Positions 3,890-45,365 are shown, numbered from the stretch's first letter. The stretch: 64,000 nucleotides of DNA from an uncultured delta proteobacterium (GCA_963759105.1 CAVWXW010000004.1:47963-111962); one strand, 5' to 3'. Program-made: numbers and translations. The notes: generated by a model from the letters alone, not told the origin.

Positions 3890-4816
3890 ATGGACATCCT
3901 CGAGGCCATCGGCAACACGTCGATGGTCCGGCTCCGCAAGGTCGTTCCGCCCGGCTGCGCGGACATCTTCGTGAAGCTCGAGTGGGAGAACCCCACCGGC
4001 AGCGTCAAGGACCGGATGGCGCAGGCGGTGATCTCGCGGGCGGAGGAGGACGGCCGGCTGAAGCCCGGAGACACCGTCGTCGAGTACACGGGCGGCAGCA
4101 CGGGGACGTCGCTGGCGCTGGTCTGCGCCGCCAAGGGCTACCGCATCCGGATCGTCACCTCCGACGCGTTCAGCCAGGAGAAGCTGGGACCACATGGCGG
4201 CGCTGGGCGCCGAGCTGACGCTCGTCCCGAGCGAGGGAGGCCTCACCACCAGGAAGCTGATCCTGGACATGATCGAGGCCGCGCGCGGGCTGAGCCAGGA
4301 GCCGCACACCTACTGGACCGACCAGCTCAACAACCAGGACAGCATCGCGGGCTACTACCCGCTGGGCGAGGAGATCTGGAGCCAGACGAGCGGGGAGGTC
4401 GACGCCTTCGTCCACTGCGTGGGCACGGCGGCCTCGTCGCGCGGCGTGGCCACCGTGCTGAAGCGGCACAAGCCGAGCGTCAGGATCGTCGTCGTCGAGC
4501 CCGCGGAGTCCTCGGTGCTGCTCGGCGGCCAGCCGGGCCGCACAAGATCGAAGGCGTCGGGATCGGCTACACGCCTCCGCTCTGGGAGCCGAGCGCTCGT
4601 GGACGAGATCCTGCCGGTCGCGACGGACGACGCCGAAGGAGATGGCGCGGCGCCTCGCGCGGGAGGAGGCCCTCTTCGCGGGGACGTCGTCCGGGGCGAA
4701 CGTCGTCGCCGCGATTCGGGTGGCGCGAGCGGCTGGGGCCGGGCGCCAAGGTGGTCACGCTGATGGCCGACTCCGGCCTGAAGTACCTGAGCACCGACGT
4801 GTACCGGCAGAAGTAA
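3890..4816 (+). CDS. cysK: cysteine synthase (O-acetylserine sulfhydrylase), PLP-dependent; frameshifted about 4 times
   Basis: MDILEAIGNTSMVRLRKV...ENPTGSVKDRMAQAVI (PLP lysine motif) in frame 1. Continues in frame 3 (4194..4763: TLVPSEGGLTTRKLILD...HCVGTAASSRGVATVLKRHKPSVRIVVVEPAES). C-terminus KVVTLMADSGLKYLSTDVYRQK is back in frame 1. Confidence 0.75.
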   Translation: MDILEAIGNTSMVRLRKVVPPGCADIFVKLEWENPTGSVKDRMAQAVISRAEEDGRLKPGDTVVEYTGGSTGTSLALVCAAKGYRIRIVTSDAFSQEKLGPHGGAGRRADARPERGRPHHQEADPGHDRGRARAEPGAAHLLDRPAQQPGQHRGLLPAGRGDLEPDERGGRRLRPLRGHGGLVARRGHRAEAAQAERQDRRRRARGVLGAARRPAGPHKIEGVGIGYTPPLWEPSARGRDPAGRDGRRRRRWRGASRGRRPSSRGRRPGRTSSPRFGWRERLGPGAKVVTLMADSGLKYLSTDVYRQK

Positions 4817-4865
4817 GATACGGGGGGCTCAGCCGCAGCGGAGCGTGATGGGGAGCGGCGCGAGC

Positions 4866-5444
<579 letters not shown>

Positions 5445-5492
5445 CTCTGCCCGGGGATATGCTCCGGGTAGACAATCATATCGCGATGCGAT

Positions 5493-5965
5493 ATGTCTCG
5501 GGCCGCCTTGCCCGTCGACCGGCTGTCCAGCGCAGATTTTCGCTCGCTCGCGGAGTTCCGCTACCAGCTGCGCCTGTTCCTCGCGTTCTCGGAGGAGCAG
5601 GCGCGCGCGGTCGGGCTCAATCCGCAGCAGCACCAGCTCTTGCTCGCGATCCGCGTGTCCGCGCCCGGGGCGCCCACCGTCGGCCACCTGGCGGAGCGGC
5701 TCATCCTCCGCCACCACAGCGTGGTGGGGCTGATCGACCGGCTCGAACAGCGGCAGCTGGTCAGTCGCTCGCGATTGCCGGAGGACCGCCGTCAGGCGCG
5801 CGTGCGGATCACGCGCGCCAGGGGGAGCGGATCCTGCACCGGCTCGCGCTCGCGCACAGGGCCGAGCTCCGCCGCGCGAGGCCTCAGCTGGTGGCCGCTC
5901 TTGCGCGGCTGGCGAGCGGCCGCGCGAGAGCGCCGTCATCGCGAGCGAAACACGGAGGCGCATGA
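5493..5965 (+). CDS. MarR-family transcriptional regulator (one frameshift near 5820)
   Basis: MSRAALPVDRLSSADFRSLAEFRYQLRLFLAFSEEQARAVGLNPQQHQLLLAIRVS...RQARVRITRA, then frame 2 GERILHRLALAHRAELRRARPQLVAALARLA. The stop overlaps the next start (ATGA at 5962). Confidence 0.7.
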
Positions 5966-7640
5966 ACGCAGACAGCACCCAGATCCGTCAGTCCTGGTTC
6001 GAACGCCTCTTCCCGGACCGGCCGCACGCCAGGCTCGGCGACTTCACCGCAACGCCGCGGATGCTGCCCATCGCCGCCATCGCGATCGCGATCGGCATCC
6101 TCAGCGCCTATGTCGCGCTCGCGCTGCTCGGCTGATCGGGCTGTTCACGAACCTGTTCTTCTTCCAGCGGTTCGACACCGCGCTGGTCGCCCGGCGGACG
6201 CACACCTCGGCGCCGCTGGTCGATCGCTCGTGCCGGTGGTCGGCGCGCTGATCATCGGGCTGATGGCGCGCTACGGCTCGGAGCGCATCCGCGGCCACGG
6301 CATCCCCGAGGCGATCGAGGCGATCCTCATGCAGCGGCAGCCGGGTCGAGCCGAAGGTCGCGCGTGCTCAAGCCGCTGTCGTCGGCGATCTCGATCGGCT
6401 CCGGCGGGCCGTTCGGCGCCGAGGGGCCGATCATCATGACCGGCGGCGCGTTCGGCTCGCTGATCGCGCAGTTCTTCCACCTGACCAGCGCCGAGCGCAA
6501 GACGCTGCTCGTCGCCGGCGCCGCGGCCGGCATGTCGGCGACGTTCGCGCGCGCCGGTGGCCGCGGTGCTGCTGGCCGTCGAGCTGCTGCTGTTCGAGTG
6601 GAAGCCGCGCAGCTTCATGCCGGTCGCGCTCGCCAGCGCCACCGCGGCGGCGACGCGTCGCTACCTGCTCGGGCTCGGCCCGCTGTTCCCCGTGCCGCCG
6701 CATCCGGCCTTCATCGGCGTGCCGGGCCTCGCTGGCTGCGTCGCTCGCCGGCCTGCTCGCCGGCGCGCTGTCGGCGCTGCTGACCGCCGGCGTCTACGCG
6801 CCGAGGACGCTGTTCCAGCAGCTGCCGCATCCACTGGATGTGGTGGCCGGCGATCGGCGGCCTGGTCATCGGCGTCGGCGGCTGATCGTTCCCGCAGGCG
6901 CTCGGCGTCGGCTACGACGCCATCGGCGCGCTGCTGTCAGGGCGACGTCGCCGAGCGCCGCGCTCCTCGGCGTGCTGGTCGTGAAGTCGATCATCTGGTC
7001 GGTGTCGCTCGGCTCGGGCACCTCGGGCGGCGTGCTGGCGCCGCTGCTGATGATGGGCGGCGCGCTCGGCGGCTCGAGGCGACGCTTCTTGCCGGCGGAC
7101 GGGCCCGGCTTCTGGCCGCTGGTCAGCATGGGCGCGATCCTCGGCGGCACGATGCGCTCGCCGTTCACCGGCGATGGTCTTCGCGCTCGAGCTGACGCAC
7201 GACGTCAACATGCTGCTGCCGCTGCTGTCGCGGTCGCGTCGCGCACGCGCTTCACCGTGCTGGTGCTGCGGCGCTCGATCCTCACCGAGAAGATCGCGCG
7301 CCGCGGCTTTCACCTCAGCCGCGAGTACGCGATCGATCCGCTGGAGATCCTGTTCGTGCGCGAGGTGATGCGCTCGGAGCCGGGCGGGCCGCCTCCCCTC
7401 GCGCCCGCCATCTGCTACCCCGACGAGACGCTTCGCACGGTCGTGTACCGCATGGCGCACCTCGGCGAGGTCCGGCTGGCGGTCGTCGATCGCGCGGATC
7501 CGTCCATCTCGGTCGGCGAGGTCACTCTGCAAGACCTGCTCATCGCGCGACGCCGCCACCTGGAGGAGGAGACGCGGCGAGAGCGCCCGCTGCCCCTGCC
7601 GATGATGATGACCCCCTGGCTCAGAGCCGGGCCCAAGTAG
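5962..7640 (+). CDS. ClC-family voltage-gated chloride channel with C-terminal CBS domains (multiple frameshifts)
   Basis: MNADSTQIRQSWFERLF...IAIAIGILSAYVALALLG. ClC signature GSGGPFGAEGPIIMTGGAFGSL (6364..). GSGTSGGVLAPLLMMGGALGG. CBS-like C-terminus ICYPDETLRTVVYRMAHLGEVRLAVVDRADPSISVGEVTLQDLL. Confidence 0.75.
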
Positions 7641-7649
7641 CTCTCCGCC

Positions 7650-9232
7650 GTGGTTTCATTGCCGGACATGTCCGGCGGCAATCGCATGGAGTCGCTCGTC
7701 CAGCGGCGGGACGAGACCACGCTGAGCATCGCCAACGCCCACGGCGTTCCGGTCACGCTGTTCGCGAACCGGGACGTCCCGGTGGAGCTCGAGGCGGTGG
7801 AGCAGGCCCTCGACTTCGTCTCCCTGCAGGGGACGGTCAACGAGATCTGGAGCCGCGAGCGAGACGGGGGCGACGTCTTCTGGGGCGACGCGGCCGGGAA
7901 GCTGAACCGGGTGGTCCTCACGCCCGACTTTCATCGCGGCGCCGGCATCCCGGTCGGCACCGTCGCCGAGGTGGATGGATTCGTCGTCCCGCAGGCGGTG
8001 GGCAACGACGTCTGCTGCGGCATGCGCCTGCTTGTCACCGACGTGACACGCGACGAGCTGGCCGGTCACCTCGACGCGCTCGAGGCGCCGCTGCGCGGCG
8101 TCTTCTTCAGGGGACAGCGCGACATCCCGATGTCGTCGCGCCAGCGAGAGGCGCTGCTCAAGGAGGGTCTGTGGGGCCTGTACGAGACCCGCCAGGACAA
8201 CGAGAACACGGGCATCTGGCGCCACTACGACCCGCGCGCCCAGGAGGCCGAGCTGTCGTCGGTCCACTTCCAGGGTGTGCTGCCGGCGTCGGGCGTCTTC
8301 GCCTTCGGGGACTACATCGCCGGACTCGGGCGCCATCGACGGGCGCGACTCGCAGATAGGCTCGGTCGGCGGCGGCAACCACTTCGTCGAGCTGCAGGTG
8401 GTGGAGGAGATCCTCGACGGGCAGACCGCCCACTCGTGGGGCGTCCACCAGGGACGCGTCGCCATCATGGCGCACTCCGGCTCGGTCGGCCTCGGCCACG
8501 CGGTCGGCGGCCACTTCCTGGACCAGGCCAGGGCGCATCTTTCCGGCGCAGATGAAGCGCCCGGACCACGGCTTCTACGTCATCCCGACCAGGGGTCCGC
8601 ACCAGGCGCTGGCGGCGAGGTATCTCGACGCCATGCGCAACGCGGCGAACTTCGCGTTCGGCAACCGCCTCTTTCTCGGCCTGATGGCGGTGCGAGTCCT
8701 GTCGGAGGTGCTCGGTCGCCACATCGACGCGCGCCTGGTCCACGACGCGCCGCACAACCTGATCTGGGAGCAGGACGGCGGCGCGGACCGCCACGTCCAT
8801 CGCAAGGGCGCCTGCCCCGCGCTGGGACCGGACGTCGGCTCCGCGGGCCCGTTCCGCTTCACCGGCCACCCGGTCATCATCCCGGGCTCGATGGGCGCTT
8901 CCAGCTACCTCCTGGCCGGGGCAGGCAGCGACGCCTCTCTGCGCAGCGCATGCCACGGCGCCGGCCGGAGCCTGTCGCGAGGGAAGTCCCGCCAGATGGA
9001 CGAGCAGCGCTACGCCGACACGTTCTCTCGCCTGCGCGTGGTCACGCCGATCGATCCGCGAGCCGCCGACGTCCGCCTGCGCCGCGACGTGCTCGCCCAG
9101 TACCACGACCGCCTCAAGGAGGAGGCGCCGTACGCGTACAAGGACATCACGCCGGTGGTGCAGACCGTCGAGGACGCGGGCATCGCCCGCCGCGTGGCCC
9201 GGCTGTGGCCGGTCATGACCATCAAGGGATAG
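7650..9232 (+). CDS. rtcB: RtcB-family RNA ligase (two frameshifts, near 8330 and 8540)
   Basis: PDFHRGAGIPVGTVAEV...NDVCCGMRLL. GGGNHFVELQVVEEILD. HSGSVGLGHAVGGHF. C-terminus HDAPHNLIWEQDGG...PVIIPGSMGASSYLLAGAG...CHGAGRSLSRGKSRQ. All typical RtcB motifs. Confidence 0.8.
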
Positions 9233-31167: not shown

Positions 31168-31312
31168 CGACGGCTCTCCTTTGGGTTGTGGTGCGGCGGG
31201 CACGTTAGCCCGAGGTCGGAGACCAAGTGTTCTTCAGCGGCGCGGTGAGCCATGTACAGGGCCGGGTTTCTGGCCCGCTGTGCCTGCGGTCACGAACACG
31301 GCGTCGATCTCG

Positions 31313-31397
31313 CGGAAGGCAAGGGATTCGAACCCTCGAGGCGACGTGGTCGCCCACCCGGCTTCCAACCGGGCTCCTCACCATTCGGATACCTTCC
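31313..31397 (-). tRNA. tRNA-Ser (anticodon GGA), class II with a long variable arm
   Basis: GGAAGGTATCCGAATGGTGAGGAGCCCGGTTGGAAGCCGGGTGGGCGACCACGTCGCCTCGAGGGTTCGAATCCCTTGCCTTCCG. Acceptor GGAAGG/CCTTCC. Anticodon loop TTGGAAG. T-loop GGTTCGAATCC. Confidence 0.8.
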
Positions 31398-31448
31398 AGA
31401 AAAAGGAAACGGACCTCCCGCGGCGGGACGACGCCGCGGGAGATCTCC

Positions 31449-32552
31449 TCACTCTCCATTCCGACCCTGGCCCAGGAGCTGGGCCGGCAGCAGGTTCTGC
31501 AACCCGTCGGCGCCAACGACGAGACGGACCTCCTTGATGTGCTCGGCGATCTCCTTCAGCGCCTCGAGCTCCTTGAGCCGGAGCAGGACCGGCTGGTCCG
31601 CCATCACGCGCGCGGTGTTGGCCAGAGACCGCGTGGCCGCGGTCTCCTCGCGGCGGAGGATCACGTTGGCAGCGGCCTCCTTCTCCGCCTCGATCACGCG
31701 GTTGAGCAGCGTCTTCATCTCGCCCGGCAGCACCACGTCCTTCACGCCGACACGCTCGATCCGGACTCCGAAGCGAGCGGCCCGCGGCAGCGCCTGCTCC
31801 TCGAGGTAGCGGGTCATGCCGTCCCGACCCTCGAGCAGCTCGTCCAGGCTGACGCCGGCGACGTAGTCGCGCGCCGCGAGCTGCACGATGACGTAGACCG
31901 AGTCGCGCACGTCGGCGACCGTCTGCGACGCGACCGGGTCGTCGATCGCGTACTCGATGGTCAGGCTGAGCCGCAGCGTGACCTTGTCGCGCGTCATCAG
32001 CTCCTGCCCCGCGATGGCGACCTGCTGCCGGCGCATGTCGACCTTGGCGATCTCGACCTGCGCCTCCGGGTGCGACCAGCGCGCGTAGCGTCCCGGCTCG
32101 AGCACGCGCCGCAGCTTTCCCTGCACGTACTCGAGACCGCGCTCCTGCTCGCGGACCTGCACGAGCACGTACTCCTTGCCCGGCATGAGCGCGATAAGCT
32201 CGTCGGTCAGCTCCGGCATCGGCTCGTCCACCGAGAAGACCTTCAGCACGACCGACCGGTCGACCGTCCAGAACCGGTGCGTGCCCGGCCGCAAGAACGC
32301 CTGCGGCTTGCCGTCGCGGTAGAGGACTCCTCGCTGCCGGTTCGACAGCGTGACCTCCTCGAACCACTCGGCCGGCAGGATCGCCCGCACCTCCGGCAAG
32401 GCGGACAAGAGCAGCACGTCGGTACGCCACCGCTGCTCGGTGTATCGCGCGCCCCAGACCGTGTAGCGGCCCGGCGCGAGGGCGCGGGTCGGGATGGAGC
32501 GGCGAAACAGGACGACCCGCTCGTCGAGCTTCACCTGGATTCGCTTGAACAT
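31449..32552 (-). CDS. SPFH / band-7 (stomatin-prohibitin-flotillin-HflKC) family protein
   Basis: MFKRIQVKLDERVVLFR...; the PHB-domain and coiled-coil C-terminus (RVIEAEKEAAANVILRREETAATRSLANTARVMADQPVLLRLKELEALKEIAEH) are typical of HflC/slipin-like proteins. 367 aa. Confidence 0.65.
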   Translation of the reverse strand: MFKRIQVKLDERVVLFRRSIPTRALAPGRYTVWGARYTEQRWRTDVLLLSALPEVRAILPAEWFEEVTLSNRQRGVLYRDGKPQAFLRPGTHRFWTVDRSVVLKVFSVDEPMPELTDELIALMPGKEYVLVQVREQERGLEYVQGKLRRVLEPGRYARWSHPEAQVEIAKVDMRRQQVAIAGQELMTRDKVTLRLSLTIEYAIDDPVASQTVADVRDSVYVIVQLAARDYVAGVSLDELLEGRDGMTRYLEEQALPRAARFGVRIERVGVKDVVLPGEMKTLLNRVIEAEKEAAANVILRREETAATRSLANTARVMADQPVLLRLKELEALKEIAEHIKEVRLVVGADGLQNLLPAQLLGQGRNGE

Positions 32553-32954
32553 GGGAAGCCTCCTCCTGCGCCGATGCCGTCGGCTTTCGGGCGGGCGGCC
32601 TCGTCTATCTGGAGGACTGGGCCGCGCCGCGGTCTGGTGTGTTCCTGATCGTCGTGGGAAAAGTGGCGTCGAGGGATCGGAGCGCCGACGGGAGGGCGCC
32701 GGGTCTTCCAGGATCGCAGCGGCGATCCCGGTCGAGACCGGCACGCTCACGCGTCGCGGCCCCGCTCGCGATGCAGATGACTGCGGGCCGACACGCGGAC
32801 CGGGCGGCGGTCGCCGCGTCGATGGCCGCCCGTTGCGTGTGCCGGCGCGAGTCGCCGGATGGCGTGCGGGTCGCCTGACCGGGACTACCGATCAAGCGAG
32901 AGGCACCCCGATCCCTCTCGGCCGAGTGGCCTTTTTGGGGCGGCCAGGCCCATC

Positions 32955-33037
32955 CCAGGTTAATAGCCCGGTGCTCTACCGCTGAGCTACATGGAGCGGG
33001 CTCCATGGAGGGAATCGAACCCTCGGCTTCCAGGTTG
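32955..33037 (-). tRNA. tRNA remnant in permuted order: the 3' half (33037-33000) directly precedes the 5' half (32997-32955) of an Asn-like tRNA
   Basis: Minus strand: AACCTGGAAGCCGAGGGTTCGATTCCCTCCATGGAGC-C-CGCTCCATGTAGCTCAGCGGTAGAGCACCGGGCTATTAACCTGG. The two halves share AACCTGG. The anticodon loop CTATTAA is Asn-like (CTGTTAA) with one difference. Confidence 0.5.
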
Positions 33038-33197
33038 GCTGGTCGTCGTGCGCGTCTGGATCCGCGGCCACCGGTTTCAGGCGGCGGTCGCAGCACCAGC
33101 GTGGAGCCGATCACCGGACACGCCGCGGAGACCGCGTGCAGCAGTCCGCGCCGTGCGGCGTCGCGCTGGCGCCCAGACTTTCATCGCGCGCAACGGT

Positions 33198-33270
33198 CGG
33201 TACGGGGGGATTCGAACCCACCACTTGTCCGGGTTTGGGCCGGATGCCTCTTCCAGTTGGGCCACGTACC
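33198..33270 (-). tRNA. tRNA-like gene, anticodon uncertain (CAA or CCA region)
   Basis: GGTACGTGGCCCAACTGGAAGAGGCATCCGGCCCAAACCCGGACAAGTGGTGGGTTCGAATCCCCCCGTACC. Has a T-loop GGTTCGAATCC and a GGTACG/CGTACC acceptor. Confidence 0.4.
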
Positions 33271-33275
33271 GCATC

Positions 33276-33346
33276 GGCACCACCGAGCAGGATCGAACTG
33301 CTTCACCGAGGTTCGGAGCCCCGGGCCGCGATCCACGCGCGGTGGC
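33276..33346 (-). tRNA. tRNA-Arg (anticodon CCG)-like
   Basis: GCCACCGCGCGTGGATCGCGGCCCGGGGCTCCGAACCTCGGTGAAGCAGTTCGATCCTGCTCGGTGGTGCC. Anticodon stem-loop CGGGG-CTCCGAA-CCTCG. T-arm GCAGTTCGATCCTGC. The D-arm is short, possibly because of indels. Confidence 0.5.
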
Positions 33347-33424
33347 AGAGAGACCGCCCCGGGTAACGCTCCCGGTTCTTCGAGGGTTGCAGCCCCGAGC
33401 CAGCCCTTGCTGGTGACGGCCGAG

Positions 33425-33499
33425 TGGTGGAAGCGAAGGGAATCGAACCCTCATCGCTCGGATGCGAGCCGAGTGCTCTCCCGTTGAGCTACACCCCCA
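33425..33499 (-). tRNA. tRNA-Ala (anticodon CGC)-like, with an encoded CCA
   Basis: GGGGGTGTAGCTCAACGGGAGAGCACTCGGCTCGCATCCGAGCGATGAGGGTTCGATTCCCTTCGCTTCCACCA. The D-arm, the anticodon loop CTCGCAT and the T-arm are good. The acceptor strands do not pair, which may be a sequence error. Confidence 0.45.
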
Positions 33500-33508
33500 C
33501 GAGTCGGT

Positions 33509-33597
33509 TGGCGGAAGCGACAGGAGTTGAACCTGCAAGGCCGCAAAGCTCGTCCGAGTTCGAATCGGGTGCCATCACCACGTTGGCTTGCGCTTCC
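33509..33597 (-). tRNA. tRNA-Ser (anticodon CGA), class II
   Basis: GGAAGCGCAAGCCAACGTGGTGATGGCACCCGATTCGAACTCGGACGAGCTTTGCGGCCTTGCAGGTTCAACTCCTGTCGCTTCCGCCA. Acceptor GGAAGCG/CGCTTCC. Long variable arm. Encoded CCA. Confidence 0.75.
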
Positions 33598-33717
33598 ACG
33601 TCACTGCTATTCGAATGTCATAGATCTCTGTGGTTAACTGCCGCGCCGCTCACCCTCGCCCGTCGGGGCACGCGTGTCGCGAACGCAGCTGTCTCGAAGG
33701 ACACACGTGTGGCGTCG

Positions 33718-33788
33718 TGGGGGCAGAAGGACTTGAACCCTCGTGCAAGCGCTTTACAGGCGCGGCAACCAGCCCGTGGTGTGCCCCC
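33718..33788 (-). tRNA. tRNA-Tyr (anticodon GTA)-like, lacking the long variable arm
   Basis: GGGGGCACACCACGGGCTGGTTGCCGCGCCTGTAAAGCGCTTGCACGAGGGTTCAAGTCCTTCTGCCCCCA. Acceptor GGGGGCA/TGCCCCC. Anticodon loop CTGTAAA. T-loop GGTTCAAGTCC. Confidence 0.45.
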
Positions 33789-34102: not shown

Positions 34103-35639
<1,537 letters not shown>

Positions 35640-35642
<3 letters not shown>

Positions 35643-37753: not shown

Positions 37754-40430
<2,677 letters not shown>

Positions 40431-40439
40431 CCGTCACGC

Positions 40440-42490
40440 GCGCGGGAGCCGCACCGGCTGGCGCGGCGGACTCCACGCGCACCGGGGCCGCGCCCGCGCG
40501 TGATGTCCCACCGGACTCCGCGCGCGGTGCCTCGCCCGCCCGTGCCGGCGGACGGCTGGCCGCACGGCCGGACAGCACGCGCGCAGGCGCCTCGCCCGGG
40601 CCGCCCGGGCGCCCTGGGCCGCCCAGCCGCGGCGGCACGCGCCCGATCACGTCGGTGACGTAGCGCTCGATGCCTGCCATGAAGGTGGCCAGGTCTCCCT
40701 CGCCGCGCTCGATCTGCTGCAGCCGCGCCTCCCACTGGCCGGTCATGGCCGGGCTCTTCACGTCCGGGTTGACCGCCTCGACGAGGCCGATGCCGAGGTC
40801 GGTCGCCTCGAGGGCCTTCTCGCGCCGCTCCATGTACTTGCGCGCCAGCAGAGTCTCGATGATCTGCGCCCGCGTGGCCGGCGTGCCCAGGCCGCACTCG
40901 CGCATCGCGTCGGACAGCTCCTTGTCGTCGAGGGCCTTGCCGGCCGTCTCCATCGCTGTCAGCAGGGTTGCGTCGGTGAAGCGGGGCGGCGGGCGGGTGC
41001 GCTTCTTGACCGCCTCGGCGTCGACCACCCGCTGGGGCTGCCCGCGCTCGAGCCCGGACGGCAGCGGCTGGCGCGACTGATCGTCGTCGGCGCCCGCCGC
41101 CCCCGACTTCGCGCCCTCGACGCGCGGCCGCGGCGGCCGTGGCTCCCCGCCCACGTCGAGCACCTTCCATCCCGGCTCGCGCACCGCCGACCCGGCGGAG
41201 TGATAGCGGTCGACGATCGCGGGATGGCCCGCGGTCCGGATCTCGGTGACCACTGTCGTCGCGTCCCACACGAAGTCGCCGTGCCAGGCGGCCAGCAGGC
41301 GGCGGCAGACGAGGTCGTGGATGCGCCGCTCGTCCGACGAAAGCGCCCGGCCGACCGGCGACTCCGCCGTCGGGATGAGCGCGTGGTGATCGGTGACCTT
41401 GCCGTCGTCGACGAAGCGGCGCGACAGCGGACGCTCTCCGGTGCCCGGCGCCAGCCGATCCTCGTAGTCGGCGCGAATCGCCGCCACGACCTGCGGCAAG
41501 GTCGCGGCGACCTCGGCCGAAAGGTGGCGGCTGCCGGTTCGCGGATAGCTCAGCAGCTTGTGCCGCTCGTACAGCGCCTGGGCCGCCTCGAGCGTGCGCT
41601 GGGCCGAGAGCCCGTACAGCCGGTTGGCGTGCCGCTGCAGCTCGGTCAGATCGTAGAGCAGGGCGGCGGCATGCGCTTGACCTGCGAGTCGAGCGACGCG
41701 ATGCGCGCCTCGCCGGCCAGCGCCCGCGCCACCACCGCGGCCGCCTCCTCGCCGCCCGGTGGAAGCCGGCGCGCCTCCAGCTTGCCCTCGGCGCACAGGC
41801 GCCCCTGGTAGGTCGCGCCATCGCGCGGCGAGAAGGTCGCCACCACCTCCAGGTAGTCCTCGGGCACGAAGTTGCGGATGGCCAGCTCGCGCTCCACGAC
41901 CATGGCCAGGGTCGGCGTCTGCACCCGACCCACCGAAAGCGGCAAGTCCAGCGCCAGACCGTAGGCGCGCGAGAGGTTCATCCCGACCAGCCAGTCGGCC
42001 TGGCTGCGCCCGCGCGCCGCGTCGGCCAGCGGGTCGTAGTCGGCGCCGTCGCGCAGCCTGCGGAAGCCCTCGCGGATGGCACCGTCGGTGAGCGAGGAGA
42101 TCCACAGCCGCCGCACCGGCTTGCTGCACCCGGCCGCCTCGTACAGGTAGCGGAAGATGAGCTCCCCCTCGCGGCCCGCGTCCGTCGCGCACACGATGCC
42201 CCGCACGCTCGGATCGGTGAGCAGCCGCCGCGCCACCTCGAACTGGCCGCGGTTCTGCTCCAGCACCACCAGCGGCCAGCTGCTCGGCAGCATGGGCAGG
42301 AGGTCGCGACGCCACCGCTTCCACTCCGGCCGGATCTGGTGCGGCTCGGCCAGCCCGACCAGATGCCCGACCGCCCAGGTCACCACGTAGCCATTGCCGG
42401 ACAGGGTGCCGGCGCCGCGCCCGGTCGCCCCGAGCACGCGCGCGATGTCGCGCGCCATCGACGGCTTCTCCGCCACCACCGCGACCGTCG
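40440..42490 (-). CDS. topB: DNA topoisomerase III (frameshifted)
   Basis: VAVVAEKPSMARDIARVLG (Toprim start). WAVGHLVGLAEP. GRVQTPTLAMVVERELAIRNF. Other frame: LYDLTELQRHANRLYGLSAQRTLEAAQALYERHKLLSYPRTGSRHLS (active-site Tyr region)...MRECGLGTPATRAQIIETLLARKYMERREKAL. Confidence 0.85.
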
Positions 42491-42520: not shown

Positions 42521-43730
42521 TCACGGTTCCCCCGCGATGCGCACGCCCGCCAGCCGGTTGACCCGCTCCAGCACGGCCCGCGCGCTCATGACTCGCTTGT
42601 AGACGTAGAGCGCGCCCGGCAGGTCGTCGCCGAGCACCTGCTCGCTGACCCGCAGGCGCTCGCTCACCGCGAACAGGATCCGCTCGCCCAGGCCCGCCGC
42701 GACCAGCTCCACGCGGCGCCACACCGCCTGGCGGCTCCAGAAGCCCATGACCTCGAGATACACGCACTCGCCGGTGCCCTCGTGCTCGAACACGAGGTCC
42801 GGCACGCACAGCCCGACGCCAGGCAGGTCGAGGATCGCCCCGGCCGGCGCCGCCCGCCACGGCGTGTCGATCACGCGCAGCGCCTCGACCAGCGCGGCCA
42901 CCTCGTCGGGCAGGCGCGGCTCGCCGCCCGGACCGCCGTCCCCGCTCCCGCCCACGAGGCGAAACGCCAGCGGCGTGCGCGCCGCGCCCCAGCGCACCTC
43001 CGCGTTCAGCGAGAAGGCGTCGCACTCGCGCAGCGCGGGCAGCGCCAGGGCCAGCTGCAGGCCGTACTTGGTCACCGACTCGAACAGGCTGAACGGCCCG
43101 TCGATCTCGATCCGGTAGCCGCCGTCGGGGTGGCTCTCGATGCGGTGGAGCAGCCGCAGGAACTTGAGCTTGCGAAACAGCGCCCGGTACGCGCCCGGTG
43201 TCGCGCACTCGACATCGACGGTGACTCGCACCGCACGCAGGAGGACCGCCTGGGCCTGGGCCAGCTCGTACTCGGCGACCAGGCGCGCCGGCTCGATCGC
43301 CTCGATCCGCCGCAGCCGGTGCGCGCCCCGCAGATCCGCGTACAGCGCCGCCTCGAGATCGTCGGCCGCCATCGCCCGCCGCCGCGGCCACCGCCTCGAT
43401 GATCGCCTGGCGATCGAAGGTGCCGGCGCCGCGCGCCGCGCTCGCCGCCAGGAACACCTCGCGCCGCACCTCGGCCGGCTCGATCGAGGCCTCCGGGTCG
43501 AACTCGCACCGGTCCTCGACCAGCTTGCGGATGCCGTCGGCCAGCCGGCGCTCGGCCGGCTGCACGTCGATGCCGGCGCAGGCCTCGACGAACTCGTCGC
43601 GGCTGCGATCGACGTGGCCTTGCGCCACGTCCAGATAGCCAGCCGCCAGCTCGCCGGCCCGCGGACTGCCGCTTGCGCGTCCAGCGCCACGAGGCGCAGC
43701 TCCCCGCCCCGGCGCCGCGCGTTGACCAGA

Positions 43731-43744
<14 letters not shown>
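42521..43744 (-). CDS. DUF790-family protein (Bax1-like predicted nuclease partner of XPB helicase); N-terminal frameshift
   Basis: ...[68 protein letters not shown]...[21 protein letters not shown]. Overlaps the upstream helicase stop by 14 nt. Confidence 0.6.
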
Positions 43745-45029
<1,285 letters not shown>

Positions 45030-45365
45030 CAGAATCCGTCGTCTCCGGGAGCCCGCGGACTTCGAGCGTGCCGCTGGCGAACGCGAGCGACACCGCGTGC
45101 GCGGTCGCGGAGTGCATCCGGCGGAGTATCGACCCCGGCTCCGACACCCGGCTGGCCGGGCCCGGCCGTCCGACCAGCCGGACGCCGTCCGGCGGACGTC
45201 CGGGGTGTCGGACGAGCCGGCTCAGAGCTGTCGCAGTGTTGGCCAACGAAACGCTCATCGAGCACCTGCAAAGCAAGCGGCGCGCCGGGAACCGAACAGC
45301 AGATCCCGACGAAGCTGGCGTCCGGCGCCGCAGCCCGCACCATTCCCGGAGGAGGCACGACCGTG

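Follow-up and report, generated by a model that had tools for sequence, protein, structure and literature searches.

A permuted tRNA-like module upstream of a slipin gene in a myxobacterial genome, probably a noncoding RNA of the YrlA architectural type

The bacterial Y RNA YrlA carries the elements of a tRNA in permuted order: a variable region is followed by the T-arm, a loop-closed acceptor-like stem and the D-arm, and distal sequences close the position of the anticodon stem (PMC4201824). By definition, YrlA lies less than 4 kb from Ro60 on the same strand (PMC4201824), and for the RNA of Mycobacterium smegmatis cutting by RNase P and the addition of CCA have both been demonstrated experimentally (PMC4201824; bioRxiv 10.1101/312249). 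A related arrangement was predicted by Burroughs and Aravind in 2016. According to the passages of Wang et al. 2018 (bioRxiv 10.1101/312249) that deal with this prediction, a Band-7-associated tRNA-like RNA (b7a-tRNA) lies next to RtcB and is strongly similar to authentic tRNA, and YrlA occasionally adjoins a Band-7 protein; the same passages give the prediction as not validated experimentally as of that preprint. In a trcR mutant of Anabaena, derepression affects alr0740, which carries the annotation slipin family protein, along with a long tRNA operon, rtcB and an HNH gene; no tRNA-like leader of the slipin gene is described in the papers concerned (PMC10272220; PMC8421152). In this work, we analyzed a 64,000-nt stretch of DNA from an uncultured delta proteobacterium (GCA_963759105.1 CAVWXW010000004.1:47963-111962; hereafter the window), in which a permuted tRNA-like module occupies positions 32955–33036 of the minus strand, immediately upstream of a slipin/Band-7 (SPFH) gene. 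Our best explanation, to which we assign a probability of about 0.7, is that the locus encodes a tRNA-mimic noncoding RNA of the YrlA architectural type that would act as the cognate RNA of the adjacent slipin/Band-7 gene, and that it is not a tRNA gene.

Anatomy of the module and its resemblance to YrlA

The order of the parts was read directly from the minus strand between 33036 and 32955. It agrees with an earlier note, made from the sequence alone, which had described the 3' half of a tRNA placed upstream of its 5' half with AACCTGG in both. The elements, all on the minus strand and read from the sequence unless other evidence is named, are listed here; R1 is a covariance model introduced below.

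32955–33036, minus: whole tRNA-like module, a predicted YrlA-type tRNA mimic (sequence; YrlA core match; R1 model; ARAGORN on the un-permuted sequence)
33036–33030, minus: first AACCTGG, containing CCTGG at 33034–33030
33034–33030, minus: CCTGG, 5' strand of a 5-bp long-range helix (tRNA positions 39–43), with CCGGG at 32971–32967 as its partner
33029–33025, minus: variable region AAGCC, 5 nt
33024–33008, minus: T-arm GAGGG/TTCGATT/CCCTC, canonical (also covariation)
33007–33001, minus: acceptor 3' strand CATGGAG
33000–32997, minus: acceptor loop CCCG, 4 nt
32996–32990, minus: acceptor 5' strand CTCCATG
32990–33007, minus: closed acceptor-like hairpin CATGGAG-CCCG-CTCCATG, 7 bp (covariation)
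32989–32988, minus: TA, corresponding to U8-A9
32987–32973, minus: D-arm GCTCAGCGGTAGAGC, GCTC AGCGGTA GAGC, canonical
32972, minus: A
32971–32967, minus: CCGGG (tRNA positions 27–31)
32966–32960, minus: 7-nt loop CTATTAA
32961–32955, minus: second AACCTGG, containing CCTGG at 32959–32955
32955–32971, minus: anticodon-like hairpin CCGGG-CTATTAA-CCTGG (also compensatory changes in close relatives)

Between the acceptor strands lie the four nucleotides CCCG and not, as first described, a single C, and the acceptor helix reaches 8 bp if G32997:C33000 is counted. The palindrome that had been remarked on is present as CTCCATGGAG at 33010–33001, where it consists of the end of the T-stem and the acceptor 3' strand; it is not the acceptor helix, which is CATGGAG/CTCCATG. 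Invariant tRNA nucleotides are retained in the module (GGTTCGA and TAGCTCA..GGTAGAGC), and the only other occurrence of the D-arm sequence GTAGCTCAGCGGTAGAGCAC in the window is in tRNA-Ala. Five bases 5' of the variable region and five bases 3' of the D-arm make up the long-range "anticodon" helix, and the first AACCTGG is explained because it holds the long-range partner of CCGGG (27–31).

ARAGORN found no tRNA at 32955–33037 in the native sequence. When the halves were joined in silico, the 5' half to the 3' half at the common CCTGG, the same program returned a perfect 75-nt cloverleaf, tRNA-Asn(att), indicating that the topology with the 3' half before the 5' half is real. The native module itself can, as predicted from its sequence, fold into a cloverleaf with the acceptor stem closed by a short loop. 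A normal contiguous tRNA hidden by an assembly error was not seen: the permuted order is identical in the window, in a contig of a JGI metagenome (locus L001) and in a metagenome-assembled genome (MAG; L005). The slipins of L001 and L005 are 96% and 98% identical to the reference homologue P0001, a close relative of the slipin of the window. Because these independent assemblies of close relatives keep the permuted order and yet differ by substitutions, the module is not an assembly artefact.

In a sensitive Rfam scan, the best and sole informative match was YrlA (RF02553) at 32970–33031, with 36.3 bits (E = 1.4e-5) against a full-model gathering threshold of 69, which is not reached. The match is limited to model positions 24–84, the tRNA-like core, and the relatives described below score 32–45 bits, also under the threshold. 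The module has the YrlA order of T-arm, closed acceptor-like stem-loop and D-arm. The Rfam tRNA model (RF00005) gave 22.2 bits at 32930–32996, below its threshold of 29, and single-sequence minimum free energy folding was uninformative (z = -0.2). The junction of two ordinary neighboring tRNAs at 33453–33559 also scores weakly as YrlA (22.6 bits). Since ordinary tandem-tRNA junctions give weak YrlA matches too, the match alone proves little and comparative evidence is needed.

Conservation upstream of slipin genes and covariation

Slipin loci were obtained by exact-protein look-ups plus a genome scan giving 72 loci, and the module was sought with a profile of four elements, a purpose-written scanner and R1, which was built from 29 sequences. 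All three place a permuted module on the slipin strand, upstream of the gene. Across 53 loci, mostly from Polyangia and nearly all from Myxococcota, with one match in a Leptospiraceae MAG (L074), the 3' end of the module lies 289–496 nt (median 346) 5' of the slipin start on the same strand, so that the feature by which the b7a type is recognized, a tRNA-like noncoding RNA beside a Band-7/SPFH gene, is present in each. The slipin homologues share 55–98% protein identity. R1 scored 78.4 bits in the window (32963–33042), and in 24 loci outside its training set (282 kb, both strands) it gave exactly one match per locus, each just upstream of slipin. These 24 loci have no tRNA arrays, and many module loci have no tRNA gene at all, indicating that the constant partner is the slipin gene and not the tRNA array. 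As a positive control for the architecture, R1 scored 47.3 bits in mycobacteriophage Bxz1 at the place where YrlA is expected, upstream of the Ro gene; tandem-tRNA junctions reach up to 47 bits with the same model.

Base pairing was evaluated in the curated 29 sequences and in the 24 further sequences, and the percentages in both sets should be read as somewhat inflated, since the scanner picked the first set by its T, acceptor and D helices and the alignment of the second was fitted to the model. The long-range helix played no part in selecting the 29 sequences.

Cells paired: 94% (29 curated sequences); 88% (24 model-fitted sequences)
Slid controls, whole structure: about 42% (29 sequences); 43–52% (24 sequences)
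Pairs with changes on both sides: 19 of 21 (29 sequences); 16 of 21 (24 sequences)
Long-range helix paired: 81% (29 sequences); 77.5% (24 sequences)

The T-arm is 100% paired in both sets, with compensatory changes at 3–4 of its 5 pairs. The acceptor hairpin is 97–99% paired and has changes on both sides at 7 of 7 pairs in the set of 29 and at 6 of 7 in the set of 24. In the long-range helix, 4 of 5 pairs change on both sides over the 29 sequences, through variants such as CCTGG/CCGGG, TCCCA/TGGGA, TCCAT/ATGGA, GCTGA/TCAGC, TCTCA/TGAGA, TCCTG/CAGGA and CCTAA/TTAGG. All four helices are conserved with compensatory changes and, on this comparative evidence, the module is a real, selected, structured RNA. 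It is, judged in the same way, a Polyangia-wide family and a member of the predicted kind that pairs a Band-7 gene with a tRNA-like RNA.

The first possibility raised by the earlier note was an attL/attR junction formed by site-specific recombination inside a tRNA gene, with AACCTGG in both halves. That the module adjoins a tRNA array that is probably horizontally mobile, that a 7-bp direct repeat flanks the unit and that tandem-tRNA junctions score YrlA-like (22.6 bits at 33453–33559, and up to 47 bits with R1) would suit such a scar, another recombination scar in a tRNA gene, or a functionless remnant of two tandem tRNA genes. We give these explanations next to no credence and consider them largely refuted. 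The att junction was rejected because no integrase was found among the 38 scanned open reading frames (ORFs) of the window, neither tRNA half recurs in the window, where a second, intact copy had been suggested as a check, and 53 conserved loci show covariation. A recombination scar is ruled unlikely since these loci keep the arrangement, the distance and the gene. Decayed tandem tRNAs were rejected because the module stands at an equal position to slipin in loci without any tRNA gene and because every helix shows compensatory changes, a sign of selection on the fold; a protein identity of 55–98% argues against copies of one recently spread mobile element. Nor does AACCTGG behave as a recombination core, as both copies are complementary to the same CCGGG (27–31).

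The second copy offers a different pairing. In the window and in about half of the family, positions 27–31 can pair locally across a 7-nt loop to give a textbook anticodon arm, and this hairpin covaries among close relatives (CTAGA/TCTAG, CTAGG/CCTAG, ACGGA/TCCGT). In 11 loci (L008, L010, L017, L018, L021, L025, L026, L030, L034, L062 and L063), the hairpin with the CU-NNN-AA loop is a separate stem 3' of the long-range helix. In the window, CCGGG at 32971–32967 is needed for the local hairpin as well as for the long-range helix, which makes the two mutually exclusive. The window loop, CUAUUAA, is one base off the tRNA-Asn loop CUGUUAA, and the exact tRNA-Asn-type arm ACGGACUGUUAAUCCGU occurs in the RtcB-slipin spacer of Geothrix; together these suggest that the module may descend from an Asn-type tRNA, via tandem duplication and trimming. 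The Geothrix terrae spacer (L065, 5716–5760) is itself a different arrangement of tRNA parts beside the slipin protein family, in which a T-arm is followed directly by the anticodon arm and then by a small D-like hairpin.

To our knowledge, an anticodon beginning with A34 occurs in bacteria only in tRNA-Arg(ACG), and AUU is not a bacterial anticodon; we also know of no bulge-helix-bulge endonuclease in Bacteria. These points bear on whether a true tRNA gene, circularly permuted or split, lies here, which was the second possibility that the earlier note had raised. Its transcript would be circularized or ligated, for example by RtcB, at AACCUGG and then trimmed by RNase P and a 3' nuclease to a decoding tRNA, and one would expect a 75-nt species joined as ...CUAUU-AACCUGGAAGCC..., or an intermediate that is circular. 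The perfect cloverleaf of the joined halves, the duplicated 7-mer exactly at the expected junction of anticodon loop and stem, the acceptor loop beginning with N-C-C and the association of RtcB with the locus family are all in keeping with this. We nevertheless rejected a decoding permuted tRNA as extremely improbable. The "anticodon" differs among syntenic orthologues, being ATT in the window and L005, TTT in L001, GCA in L003, GAA in L004, ACG in L007 and GTC in L020, with GTA, TGT and others elsewhere, so that there is no conserved decoding identity; in the 11 loci listed above, no second 39–43 strand follows 27–31 and no tRNA can be reconstituted. Circular permutation therefore holds as a description of the topology (T-arm, closed acceptor hairpin, D-arm) and fails as a description of a decoding tRNA gene, given the variable anticodon.

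With the YrlA-type order present, YrlA as the best Rfam match and R1 also detecting the YrlA position of Bxz1, we also considered a canonical Ro60-binding Y RNA whose Rsr partner protein would be encoded at another place in the genome. We find this very unlikely. The 36.3 bits are far below 69 and cover model positions 24–84 only. The Ro-binding motif GNCGAAN0-1G is absent from the window and occurs in 6 of the 53 upstream flanks, which is the background rate (12.7%). A tblastn search with Bxz1 Ro, a single query of limited sensitivity, found no TROVE/Ro60 gene in the 64-kb window or in 76 loci (none with E < 0.68), and Pfam scans found no TROVE domain among the 38 window ORFs. Moreover, YrlA is defined by Ro60 within 4 kb, whereas the constant neighbor here is the slipin gene.

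The slipin gene, its leader and the flanking window

The features around the module, all on the minus strand, are the following.

31449–32552, minus: intact slipin/Band-7 (SPFH) gene, 367 aa (translation; Pfam Band_7, E 1e-25)
32553–33112, minus: leader of about 560 nt, conserved and non-coding, with the tRNA-like module inside it (six-sequence alignment)
31412–31445, minus: strong terminator-like hairpin, 14 bp with a T-rich tail, directly 3' of the slipin stop (terminator scan)
33195–33788, minus: tRNA array Tyr-GTA, Ser-CGA, Ala-CGC, Arg-CCG, Leu-CAA (ARAGORN)
31312–31397, minus: tRNA-Ser-GGA (ARAGORN)

The slipin gene is the immediate downstream neighbor of the module on the same strand. 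Matches to stomatin structures in the PDB cover residues 134–355 of its product, and the first 133 residues form a separate domain in place of the membrane hairpin of stomatin; no hydrophobic membrane segment was seen when the sequence was read by eye, with no predictor run. The homologues are annotated as slipin family proteins and come from uncultured Myxococcota/Polyangiales. Slipin homologues were not found in a phage collection, and PADLOC defence models gave no match to the slipin protein and the downstream ORFs. In Kofleriaceae/Haliangiales (P0004; L035–L060), the slipins are about 489 aa long with the ~120-aa N-terminal domain duplicated in tandem, and their loci keep the upstream tRNA-like module and have no tRNA arrays nearby.

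In the six-sequence alignment, the conserved blocks of the leader carry indels of 1–2 nt, indicating that it is non-coding. The loop GCCUGAAAC of its 5' hairpin, at about 33088–33065, is nearly invariant in the window, L001, L003, L004 and L005. The 3' part (32553–32954, minus strand), about 400 nt between the module and the slipin ATG, is made up of blocks that are conserved and non-coding and include compensatory hairpins, for example GCCGACGGCATCGGC versus GCCGGCGGTACCGGC just 5' of the Shine-Dalgarno GGAGG that precedes the slipin ATG, and may be part of a larger structured leader outside Rfam. No terminator-like site was found between the module and the slipin start. Scans for sigma-70 promoters found nothing close to the module, and a scan of the window for the sigma-54 pattern found no site near it.

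These properties bear on another explanation, in which the module acts only in cis, as the 5' leader of the slipin mRNA, and has no role as the cofactor of a protein. It might be an RNase P signal by which the mRNA is parted from the tRNA array upstream, a protective structure at the 5' end, or a riboregulator alternating between the long-range helix and the local hairpin. The entire ~560-nt region up to the Shine-Dalgarno is conserved and non-coding, no terminator-like site interrupts it from the module to the slipin start, the distance to the start codon is constant and both mutually exclusive pairings covary, all of which speak for a function in cis. We still judge this explanation fairly unlikely, because many loci have no tRNA array to be parted from, because Ro60/YrlA systems use the tRNA-like RNA as a protein partner (PMC4201824) and because the second module copy in L013 precedes an RtcB-like gene and not slipin. 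This second permuted module (6295–6378; 65.8 bits) lies ~340 nt upstream of the divergent RtcB-like gene (6720–7946).

The module and the slipin gene are flanked by the tRNA array and tRNA-Ser-GGA on the same strand, giving 6 tRNAs in total, 3 of which reach the Rfam tRNA threshold. A long variable arm is usual in bacterial tRNA-Tyr; the tRNA-Tyr(GTA) of the window is 72 nt long and has none. Atypical tRNAs of this sort fit a horizontally acquired accessory tRNA array. The only similar phage DNA around the tRNA cluster was a 75% match of one tRNA-Ser to Streptomyces phages. The window has ~72% G+C, encodes sigma-54 activators, Ser/Thr kinases and similar products, and is chromosomal and myxobacterial by gene content. 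An exact look-up of its transaldolase found no record.

Some genes elsewhere in the window look frameshifted or truncated (6557–9232 and 3890–4816, plus strand; 34103–35641, minus strand): a CLC channel is split over 6557–7195 and 6840–7640, a PALP enzyme matches over its first ~95 residues only, and a G6PD lacks an ATG, GTG or TTG upstream of its NAD-binding domain. These broken-looking genes suggest indel noise of a long-read assembly, or pseudogenes. On the minus strand, a 1325-aa ORF (38347–42324) joins an N-terminal type IA topoisomerase domain to a DEAD/Helicase_C helicase module that follows it, a domain order opposite to that of reverse gyrase, and an XPB/ERCC3-like helicase adjoins a DUF790 protein at 42521–45221, which looks like a bacterial XPB-Bax1-like pair. 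A 2-kb stretch at 4001–6000 differs from the rest of the window in its strong compositional skew (GC skew +0.31, AT skew +0.26).

RNA-repair context, proposed role and comparison with known systems

RtcB is encoded directly upstream of slipin in L004, where an HNH gene and 11 tRNAs are also present, as well as in L065, L067 and L071, which are acidobacterial loci. It lies within 6 kb of slipin in L018, L063, L072 and L013; most loci have none within that distance. Arrays of 20–31 tRNAs stand beside slipin in L008, L023, L030, L033, L062, L065 and L071. Full-length slipin homologues also occur in Enterobacteria, with 36–39% identity. In Citrobacter freundii (L079, 6363–6812), rtcR is divergent from a slipin-nucleotidyltransferase operon, and the 449-nt gap between them contains a sigma-54-like site (6499–6513) and a perfect T-arm (6625–6639). 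At the equivalent place in E. coli STEC639 (L078, 6800–6860), a T-arm is accompanied by a closed hairpin and there is no D-arm. Elsewhere, a nucleotidyltransferase partner like that of E. coli and Citrobacter was found only in L030.

We propose that module and slipin gene share a transcript, which in the window probably includes the tRNA array upstream as well, and that the module would take the L-shape of a tRNA and be handled by tRNA enzymes. The acceptor loop starts with N73-C-C like the 3' end of a tRNA: it is CCCG in the window, and in relatives it begins with ACCA or TCCA (L013, L021, L026, L027, L056 and L057) or with NCC. Because of this start, the loop is a likely site of RNase P cleavage and CCA maturation; by analogy with M. 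smegmatis YrlA, RNase P would probably cut there, and the N-C-C start could be matured to CCA. The module and the SPFH protein, which is presumably soluble, may together form an RNA-protein scaffold or cofactor, or the module may be a cis-acting sensor, in either case answering tRNA or RNA damage or translational stress. Such a role would mirror the one proposed for Ro60 and Y RNA beside RtcB. The alternative local hairpin that the second AACCTGG would allow could be a relic of a tandem-tRNA origin or part of a conformational switch.

A more specific version of the latter, which we offer as speculation and consider distinctly unlikely, is that the tRNA mimic is a damage- or state-sensing switch in the slipin mRNA. 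Its alternative states would be the long-range helix and the local hairpin, and the balance between them, shifted by a cut of an anticodon nuclease in the exposed CU-NNN-AA loop, by RNase P/CCA processing of the acceptor loop or by binding of an SPFH cage, would set slipin expression. If this were true, the locus would be a self-contained RNA-protein sensor of tRNA-targeting toxins that is independent of Ro60 and RtcB.

Besides the inflation of the pairing percentages, several points weigh against a cognate noncoding RNA of the slipin gene linked to RNA repair. RtcB of the window lies 24 kb away and is apparently frameshifted (frames 7650–8555 and 8360–9232), which weakens a direct link to ligation in this genome. 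Many loci consist of the module and slipin only and lack a repair gene within 6 kb. Applied to six close relatives, RNAalifold favors the local hairpin over the long-range helix, and only one of the two can form in the window. Finally, the RNA may work in cis alone, on the mRNA of slipin, and not as a cofactor of the protein.

An apparently broken or permuted tRNA in a myxobacterial genome is, on the comparative evidence, a selected structured RNA that is missed by tRNA finders and by Rfam thresholds. The 2016 prediction of a cognate RNA for SPFH/Band-7 proteins now has 53 loci, a covariance model and covariation support, and the RNA-slipin pair persists without nearby RtcB, Ro60 or tRNA arrays. 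The CCA-like acceptor loops and the two competing pairings around positions 27–31 are features open to test.

Among known systems, the permuted tRNA genes of the red alga Cyanidioschyzon merolae resemble the module in topology. They encode decoding tRNAs with fixed anticodons, matured through a circular intermediate by the eukaryotic/archaeal splicing endonuclease. As in these genes, the 3' half lies upstream of the 5' half in the window, the linker is short and re-joining gives a full cloverleaf; unlike them, the anticodon is variable here, re-joining is impossible for many members and the module belongs to a bacterium. The long tRNA operon and TrcR regulon of Anabaena (PMC8421152; PMC10272220) are similar in that the tRNA array of the window is on the same strand as accessory genes and that RtcB and HNH occur in relatives. 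In contrast to the Anabaena trn operon, the window has only 6 tRNAs, and the module is also present where no array exists.

Compared with b7a-tRNA and the SPFH/Band-7 RNA-repair module as described in the passages of Wang et al. 2018 that concern them, the window likewise has a tRNA-like RNA beside a Band-7 gene, and RtcB appears in the neighborhoods of some relatives; it differs from that description in the permuted YrlA topology of the element and in that RtcB is not adjacent in the window. With YrlA (Chen et al. 2014, PMC4201824; Wang et al. 2018, bioRxiv 10.1101/312249), the module shares the identical permuted order of tRNA elements, an acceptor stem of 7 bp as in M. smegmatis YrlA, a position beside its presumed protein partner and, in some relatives, proximity to RtcB. 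Unlike YrlA, it stays below the Rfam threshold with a match to the core only and lacks the Ro-binding GNCGAA motif, its constant neighbor is a slipin/Band-7 gene and not Ro60/TROVE, it has an additional anticodon-like hairpin with a 7-nt CU-NNN-AA loop, and it sits inside a conserved leader that reaches the slipin start codon. Taken by its predicted architecture and its neighbor, the module fits the case of YrlA beside a Band-7 protein noted by Burroughs and Aravind, and in Polyangia this case would be the rule and not the exception.

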